From: Gammaproteobacteria bacterium
GTDB taxonomy: Bacteria; Pseudomonadota; Gammaproteobacteria; UBA12402
Direction of reading: 5' to 3'
Assembly (NCBI GenBank): GCA_050123375.1
Contig: JASFHF010000001.1
Span: forward strand, 34,475-98,474
DNA: 64,000 nt
Made by a program: the position numbers and the translations under genes. Of the stretch, positions 62,824 to 63,053 are shown piece after piece (position 1 is the stretch's first letter; each line of letters opens with the position of its first letter). Below the pieces are notes generated by a model that made no database searches, was not told the DNA's origin, and saw only the letters and a list, made by a program, of their open reading frames with translations.

Positions 62824-62860
62824 GGAGAGGTGTCCGAGCTGGTTTAAGGAGCACGACTGG
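62824..62860 (+). other. duplicated 5' half of tRNA-Ser (37 nt, identical to 62965-63001), followed by a GC-rich hairpin insert (family D, copy D4, 62861-62964)
   Basis: 'ggagaggtgtccgagctggtttaaggagcacgactgg' occurs twice. The copies are separated by 'ggcgaagcattgcttcgcc' and 'gctcagcatggatgctgagc' hairpins. Confidence 0.85.
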
Positions 62861-62964
62861 GTGAGTCGGTGTCAGTTTAGGCGAAGCATTGCTTCGCCCC
62901 GGCGAACGCTCAGCATGGATGCTGAGCCGGATCAATCACCATGGATGGTTGCTTGGTTTTAAGT

Positions 62965-63053
62965 GGAGAGGTGTCCGAGCTGGTTTAAGGAGCACGACTG
63001 GAACTCGTGTATACGTTAATAGCGTATCGAGGGTTCGAATCCCTCCCTCTCCG
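62965..63053 (+). tRNA. tRNA-Ser (anticodon GGA)
   Basis: Acceptor ggagagg/cctctcc, D-arm 'gtcc gagctggtttaa gga', anticodon loop ctGGAac, a long variable arm and T-arm 'gagggttcgaatccctc'. Confidence 0.85.

Follow-up and report, generated by a model that had tools for sequence, protein, structure and literature searches.

Upstream of an intact tRNA-Ser(GGA) gene of an uncultured, Legionella-like host stand a dead duplicate of the gene's 5′ half and a 103-nt module of GC-rich hairpins. The arrangement has the look of a harmless scar left by recombination, more than of an intron or of an active transposable element. Our preferred but tentative reading (to which we give somewhat less than an even chance) is that the module and the 5′ part of the tRNA were brought in by a recombination event for which the tRNA sequence provided the anchor. 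The case is built on the repeat, the intact gene, an empty allele in a close relative and homologous modules at the same locus in other relatives; from these we infer the recombination route, its direction (gain in the analysed DNA versus loss in the relative L019) and the processing of the transcript.

Architecture of the tRNA-Ser(GGA) locus

The analysed stretch of DNA (hereafter the window; 64,000 nt at full length) comes from a 105-kb metagenome contig of JGI sample 3300042731, and its closest named protein relatives belong to Legionellales and to Gammaproteobacteria MAGs; RlmN is 100% identical to a protein encoded in one NCBI MAG. The RNA genes are clustered in the order tRNA-Ser, 4.5S RNA, tRNA-Leu; upstream of them lie mrdA, rodA, mltB, rlpA and a gene for a Pht-like MFS transporter, and downstream, on the opposite strand, purA (Table 1). 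The initial annotation had recorded that the upstream half is identical to the first 37 nt of the tRNA gene; the identity is exact and, with the T at tRNA position -1 included, extends to 38 nt (38/38 identical, positions -1 to 35, repeat search), for which the chance expectation in 64 kb is ~3e-14. The last bases of the repeat are G34-G35 of the GGA anticodon, which puts the break point within the anticodon loop. ARAGORN and Rfam agree with the annotation that the downstream gene is an intact tRNA-Ser(GGA) (Rfam tRNA model, 54.9 bits against a gathering score of 29). The dead half keeps its native upstream context (..ACAAT/GGAGAGG, the slash marking the junction) and a D-loop variant (GAGCTGG) that is specific to the lineage, and the intact gene keeps its native downstream sequence. 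Within the 64-kb window no other tRNA has a partial duplicate.

Table 1. Positions of the features in the window
Feature	Position	Strand	Basis
Promoter-like site TTGGTA-16 nt-TACAAT, abutting the dead half (putative)	62796..62823	+	consensus scan, 9/12 matches
Direct-repeat copy 1: displaced dead copy of tRNA-Ser(GGA) positions -1 to 35	62823..62860	+	exact repeat; L019 junction
Hairpin module, 103 nt, start GTGAGTCGG, end TTTTAAG	62861..62963	+	RNA fold; absent in L019; homologues in L022, L018, L057
Outer helix of the module, enclosing hairpin 1	62865-62869/62899-62903		RNA fold
Hairpin 1	62880-62898		RNA fold
Linker between hairpins 1 and 2, GCGAACGC
Hairpin 2, loop TGGA at 62916-62919 (UGGA as RNA)	62908-62927
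Hairpin 3, loop TGGA at 62942-62945 (UGGA as RNA)	62929-62959
Direct-repeat copy 2: position -1 plus first 37 nt of the intact tRNA gene	62964..63001	+	repeat search
Intact tRNA-Ser(GGA), long variable arm, no encoded CCA	62965..63053	+	ARAGORN, Rfam
4.5S (small SRP) RNA gene	63073..63169	+	Rfam RF00169, 67.5 bits, E 2.6e-14
tRNA-Leu(CAG), last in the RNA gene cluster	63205..63291	+	ARAGORN, Rfam
AT-rich palindromes hosting hairpin clusters	2840-2945; 22160-22270; 56000-56180

The insert described by the initial annotation as a GC-rich hairpin stretch of ~104 bp does consist of GC-rich hairpins (54% GC, against 37% for the window), with a length of 103 nt; as RNA it folds into three hairpins (-41.4 kcal/mol, z = -2.9). 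Its ends (GTGAGTCGG.. and ..GGTTTTAAG) form no terminal inverted repeats, a BLAST search of the 64-kb window recovered no near-identical second copy (itself and short chance words were returned), and no Rfam family matched it even at E up to 10, group I intron included. Its single open frame, of 68 aa, is spurious. Neither cargo nor an integrase gene or pseudogene was detected between the repeats (which are separated by 103 nt) or nearby, and there is no integrase or transposase among the neighbours mrdA, rodA, mltB, rlpA, the MFS gene and purA. Rfam matches to sX4 and to a plastid UTR were dismissed as weak and driven by the tRNA itself, and the right end of the module (TGGTTT[TG]A), tried as a relic of a D-loop, was not significant against shuffles.

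Other features of the window were recorded in passing. A 21-nt inverted repeat (63054-63074/63165-63185, 90% complementary) reaches to 1 nt from the 3′ end of tRNA-Ser and lengthens the helix of the 4.5S/SRP RNA by ~19 nt per side past the Rfam model; it may be the processing stem of the 4.5S RNA precursor. A HinfI-type restriction-modification pair lies between an SLT gene and ndk (361-1140 and upstream of the window start), a position at which the relative L071 has a tRNA-Ser(CGA) gene and a 150-nt unit instead. An ORF of 2253 aa (46373-53134, minus strand) lies where the window is richest in AT (29-33% GC).

Filled, variant and empty alleles in relatives

Relatives were found by means of the MFS protein, and their contigs were fetched; one metagenome scan with a tRNA 20-mer was added. 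In the closest relative with available DNA, L019 (95% protein identity and 93.2% DNA identity over 900 nt in the MFS gene), the site is empty (..AAACAAT/GGAGAGG..), with neither fragment nor module, and the tRNA is identical to that of the window. The comparison of related genomes proposed by the initial annotation thus returned a true insertion-type polymorphism, L019 being empty at the same junction, and by this alignment the 141 bp that distinguish the two genomes are to be regarded as an insertion/deletion polymorphism. Since the intact tRNA of L019 has the same ACAAT junction, the upstream half in the window is, on the evidence of the junctions, the displaced original.

More distant relatives carry variants of the arrangement. 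In L018 (76% protein identity) the conserved promoter motif and ACAAT are followed by a tRNA 5′ fragment of 16-18 nt that ends in the D-loop, a module that starts with GTGAGGCGG and contains GCGAACGC and CATGGATG, an AT-rich spacer and the intact tRNA. L022, which over the RNA genes resembles L018 more than the window, has a homologous module, spacer and tRNA on a contig that ends inside the module. The window falls outside the subclade of L022 and L018, and the hairpin module stands upstream of tRNA-Ser in both subclades; with modules in this position in L022 and L018, donor-type alleles therefore exist. The left junction GG/GTGAG is common to the window and L018, located in the anticodon loop of the former and in the D-loop of the latter; this agreement is compatible with a common origin. 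L015, whose protein is 93% identical to that of L018, has only the spacer left beside the tRNA, and we read it as a deletion derivative. L014 and L068 (86% protein identity) lack the upstream module; past the tRNA they carry ~190 bp of inserted DNA, delimited by a further copy of the final 16 nt of that tRNA. Deletion from an L018-like arrangement could have given the upstream contexts of L014 and L015, a reading that is no more than suggestive (p about 0.06-0.075). L016 (~75% protein identity) has a tRNA-Ser without partial duplicate, and L017 (68%) has no tRNA-Ser at this place, its promoter motif running straight into the 4.5S RNA gene. In all, the 5′ fragment with module (window, L018) and the module of L022 are upstream arrangements, and L014, L068, L071 and L041 represent the type with a downstream unit.

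A 26-nt indel (TTACTTGGTAGAAAGAAATTTATATGT), present in the window (62792-62818, compared with 905-925 of L019) and absent from L019, lies 5 nt upstream of the fragment; the history of the locus therefore comprises more than one clean event. Two further candidates were discarded: a putative, decayed remnant of an earlier 5′ fragment in front of the L016 tRNA was not significant against shuffles, and priming by a retro-element or a tRNA fragment (considered for the CCA after the L014 tRNA) is unnecessary, as other lineages natively encode CCAGAT there and a DNA source suffices. Scanning a genome collection with the MFS protein gave only relatives of 35-41% identity, beside tRNA-Pro and without synteny, and the deeper MFS relatives P0008 and P0009 have the gene order MFS-hfq and no tRNA-Ser. 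As separate observations, a relB/yafQ toxin-antitoxin pair is situated between tRNA-Leu and purA in L019 (1321-1854), L018 (2950-3483) and the P0001 contig and is missing from the window, and a 29-nt perfect AT-rich palindrome follows the MFS gene in L017 (5305-5609).

A motif-level family of GGA-loop hairpins

When the modules of the window, L022, L018 and L057 were aligned, the order of their parts was found to be common to all: a left end (G)GGTGAG-N-CG, a perfect hairpin, the linker GCGAACG, and one or two hairpins, the loop of the terminal one(s) being C-A/C-T-GGA-T-G. The stem of the first hairpin is wholly different in each lineage and each time perfect, and the right-hand spacers between module and tRNA (8, ~20 and ~37 nt) differ in length and sequence. 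A consensus fold of the four modules gave a negligible covariation term (-0.25 kcal/mol), the alignment being too poor for a covariance model. The L057 member (GGGTGAGCGCGAACC.., GCGAACGAC, TGGCCATGGATGGCCA; 770-1170) lies downstream of the tRNA-Ser of that lineage, in a region with a 265-nt tandem repeat starting CCTCAGCTCAGAGGTAAGCTGG; it was rejected as a clean module with a flanking target duplication, the flanking CTCAGCTCAGAGG belonging to the tandemly repeated region.

The initial annotation had assigned the insert to a ‘D-family hairpin cluster’, and this holds at the level of motifs (CATGGATG occurs 7 times in the window against 1.76 expected), with no sequence-similar copy found by BLAST in the window. 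The motif falls mostly in loops of GC-rich hairpins (1684, 2898, 22204, 56087, 62914, 62940), and the linker-plus-hairpin pair of the module recurs at 1669-1691. GC-rich GGA-loop hairpin clusters are present at 2859-2921, 22183-22258 and 56058-56151, each inside the loop of a long AT-rich, terminator-like palindrome (Table 1). Overall, some five clusters in 64 kb have loop and linker motifs in common, and not stems; by our own count from folds and sequences, GGA is present in 9 of the 10 loops of GC-rich hairpins in the window. Within 2840-2945, 22160-22270, 55990-56185 and 1640-1715, GGA occurs in nearly every cluster loop (CATGGATG, CCTGGATG, ACGGAGG) and the motif is always on the plus strand; the cluster at 22204 is antisense to both neighbouring genes. 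The cluster in the ndk-rlmN spacer was compared with L071 for an empty site, and the spacers were not alignable. In viral contigs the motif pattern of the module gave chance matches only, in GC-rich phages.

Binding sites of CsrA take the form CAGGA(U/A/C)G in the repeats of CsrB and RUACARGGAUGU in the SELEX consensus, are presented in hairpin loops, and in good ligands sit on short stems (PMC7652899). The GGA-loop hairpins appear to match the form of such a site, which we treat as a lead and not as a result.

Structured units downstream of tRNA-Ser genes

In four relatives a multi-hairpin unit of ~150 nt was observed after tRNA-Ser genes (L014 2110-2316; L068 719-928; L071 4905-5111; L041 390-590). 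It is predicted to be very stable as RNA (z = -7.2 and -7.4), presents the loops CAGGAUG and CAGGAU(A/U), and ends in a repeat of the last 16 nt of the tRNA, which forms the closing helix. The unit of the tRNA-Ser(CGA) locus (L071) is 89% identical to that of the tRNA-Ser(GGA) locus (L014, L068), and no Rfam family matched it; we regard it as a candidate sRNA gene. It is reminiscent of the E. coli tyrT operon, whose repeat units give RtT RNA and end in the last 19 nt of tRNA-Tyr. Here too a tRNA operon holds extra structured units bounded by pieces of a neighbouring tRNA, and it is the units of L014, L068, L071 and L041 that provide the 3′-type match; in contrast, the piece in the window is a 5′ half and lies upstream, and there is neither sequence similarity nor an Rfam match to RtT.

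These occurrences suggest a wider association of tRNA-Ser genes with GGA-loop hairpin units in the clade. A bolder reading, which we hold to be quite improbable, is that GGA-loop modules are physically tied to tRNA-Ser genes and bounded by tRNA pieces that act both as mobile homology arms and as RNA processing handles. As arms, the pieces would be universal, moving cassettes between genomes or between tRNA-Ser isoacceptor genes; as handles for RNase P and 3′ trimming, they would free putative CsrA-binding RNAs from tRNA operon transcripts.

Origin of the duplication

In the sequence of events that we favour, the leader of tRNA-Ser(GGA) would have been lengthened by 141 bp, made up of the first 37 nt of the resident gene and the 103-nt module. 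Module and tRNA 5′ copy would have arrived as one piece of DNA, from a relative or allele that already had the module upstream of tRNA-Ser. On the right side, homologous recombination would have taken place within the highly conserved sequence of the tRNA or the 4.5S RNA; on the left side, the join could have been made by microhomology (GG) in the anticodon loop or, if the donor already had a dead fragment, by homologous recombination in the tRNA 5′ part. The incoming 5′ part would regenerate the gene and the resident one would be displaced upstream. The resulting 38-bp direct repeats would allow the cassette to be lost precisely and, by homologous recombination, to be passed on again, which would explain the filled and empty alleles of close relatives. 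Because a slippage deletion (CTGG..CTGG or GG..GG) could shorten the 37-nt fragment to the 18 nt seen in L018, it is possible that the arrangements of the window and L018 share a single origin, followed by spread or trimming. The suggestion of the initial annotation that the locus records an aborted recombination comes close to this account, which we prefer tentatively and whose route is reconstructed from the sequences.

The third-codon-position distance between the window and L019 is 0.147, at which ~2.8 changes would be expected in a neutral fragment that predates their split (P of none = 0.06). Because the fragment is identical to the tRNA in spite of this expectation, the repeat looks young or kept identical by conversion; the modules look old, as their stems are wholly different between lineages. 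A fitting precedent is homology-facilitated illegitimate recombination, described in naturally transformable bacteria, in which foreign DNA has a one-sided homologous anchor. The likeness consists in an anchor on one side (tRNA or 4.5S RNA) and GG microhomology on the other; the difference is that our donor is hypothetical and the route is deduced from sequence. Several points weigh against the recombination reading: a left arm of 37 nt is barely long enough for RecA-dependent recombination, the 26-nt indel just upstream speaks for more than one event, no near-identical module was found that could serve as donor, L019 could have lost 141 bp by recombination between the repeats, and, if the window and L018 are independent, their shared GTGAG end at two tRNA loops favours a transposition-like process.

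Such a process had been proposed in the initial annotation as a small mobile element with a target-site duplication. Its most explicit version, which we judge unlikely, invokes a small non-autonomous mobile hairpin that enters single-stranded loops (tRNA D-loop, anticodon loop, loops of terminator palindromes) behind a GG and generates long, variable target duplications (38 nt in the window, 16-18 nt in L018). It would account for the same left end being joined to two loops of the same tRNA, for the nesting of GGA-loop clusters in palindrome loops (2840-2945, 22160-22270, 56000-56180), for the filled/empty polymorphism revealed by L019 and for a family that is recognizable by its motifs in several lineages, among them L057, with a member outside any tRNA. 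Dispersed GC-rich palindromes are familiar from AT-rich genomes (yeast mitochondrial GC clusters, Rickettsia palindromic elements, REP/BIME), and the window resembles them in its short GC-rich intergenic hairpin clusters, some nested in other hairpins; its copies, however, share loops and linkers rather than stems, and no associated transposase was seen in the 64 kb. We know of no such family that duplicates tens of bases of a tRNA gene, nor of a bacterial transposition that gives duplications of 16-38 nt, and no known transposase would produce a duplication of 38 nt in one case (the window) and of 16-18 nt in the other (L018). The absence from the window of inverted repeats, of a transposase or integrase and of near-identical copies speaks against the element as annotated, as do stems that are unrelated among members that share motifs only, right ends that differ in length and sequence, the tandemly repeated surroundings of the L057 flanking repeat and the prospect that the window and L018 cases descend from one event. 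Rather unlikely, too, is that the module is an old, selected, structured leader RNA (for instance CsrA-binding and released by RNase P), with the fragment kept by conversion or selection and lost in L019 and L014. Under selection one would understand why linkers and loops (GCGAACG, CATGGATG) are kept in both subclades with stems swapped for other perfect stems, why 9 of the 10 GC-rich hairpin loops in the window present GGA, the CsrA site type (PMC7652899), and why the L014 and L015 contexts resemble deletion derivatives. The resemblance to CsrB, RsmY and RsmZ lies in GGA placed in hairpin loops as C-A-N-GGA-U-G; the module differs in having two GGA loops only, long GC-rich stems and no standing as a separate gene with terminator, and the models of CsrB, CsrC, RsmX, RsmY and RsmZ gave no match to it at E up to 10. 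Further counter-evidence is that the search for matches to other Rfam families, for a terminator of its own and for a GacA/LetA-type box was negative, that the closest relative, L019, does without the leader, that the 3-4 available sequences offer almost no covariation support, and that the cluster at 22204 is antisense to both its neighbours.

In tRNA-gene islands the target is split, the incoming DNA regenerates the gene and the displaced fragment is left as a direct repeat (PMC4383910). The window could by this signature be a collapsed island or prophage, integrated in the anticodon loop by a tyrosine integrase and reduced to attL and attR by deletion of its cargo, an explanation that we find very improbable. 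It gains from the relatives that have toxin-antitoxin genes and other inserts around the RNA gene cluster, and the anticodon loop is a known crossover site of integrases. Known integrase elements, on the other hand, supply the 3′ part of the tRNA; that a 5′ half is duplicated here is, as the initial annotation had stressed, unusual, and amounts to the mirror image of the usual pattern. The likeness to integrase islands and prophages (the Islander principle) thus ends at the regenerated gene and the displaced fragment: the displaced piece is the 5′ one, the 103 bp between the repeats are hairpins whose family also occurs away from tRNAs, integrase and cargo are lacking, and viral contigs gave no match, either for a 20-mer of the tRNA 5′ half (2.9 million contigs) or for a tRNA 24-mer. 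Extremely improbable, finally, are an assembly artefact at a short repeat and a single long pre-tRNA in which the insert and the second half form an intron. The origin of the sequence in a metagenome contig would suit an artefact; it is made unlikely by the two junctions, both unique sequences that require spanning reads, and by the similar architecture in the independent L018 assembly, which comes from another sample. The minimum-energy fold of the whole region does let the upstream acceptor strand pair with the 3′ end, a point in favour of the single long pre-tRNA. The intron-like insert envisaged by the initial annotation nevertheless found no backing: group I intron models do not match, the downstream tRNA is uninterrupted, the 16-18-nt fragment of L018 is too short to form a tRNA, and to our knowledge bacteria have no protein-based tRNA splicing.

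Expression and processing

The -35 part of the promoter-like site lies in the 26-nt stretch that L019 lacks. Read-through into the tRNA is plausible, because the plus strand has no terminator-like site between the promoter-like site and the tRNA. Longer leaders of bacterial pre-tRNAs are removed by RNase P; transcription arriving from upstream would accordingly be followed by cleavage at 62964/62965, giving a normal tRNA and, as by-product, a leader of ~135-140 nt with two GGA-loop hairpins. Initiation at the promoter-like site, if it occurs, would place the transcript start within the dead half, which would then probably be unable to compete for the 3′ strand of the acceptor. The dead half would form part of a read-through leader, and a stable 5′ tRNA half is not expected from it. 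We expect the insertion to be close to neutral, because the tRNA gene is undamaged, matches that of the empty-site relative exactly and would lose its leader to RNase P.

Biological significance

A regenerated tRNA gene with a displaced fragment is a known outcome of integration; what sets this locus apart is the mirror orientation and the tiny non-coding cassette. A 5′ tRNA fragment within a few hundred bases of the intact gene need not mark an integrase-borne island, and may bracket a tiny non-coding cassette instead. If the recombination reading is true, near-invariant tRNA sequence would supply the homology by which small structured DNA moves in and out, leaving the gene intact and requiring no recombinase of its own. 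More speculatively, if the GGA-loop hairpins bind CsrA, the leaders and trailers of tRNA operons would be a source of regulatory RNA in Legionella-like bacteria, and tRNA transcription might be coupled to the Csr switch, which controls the life cycle of these bacteria.
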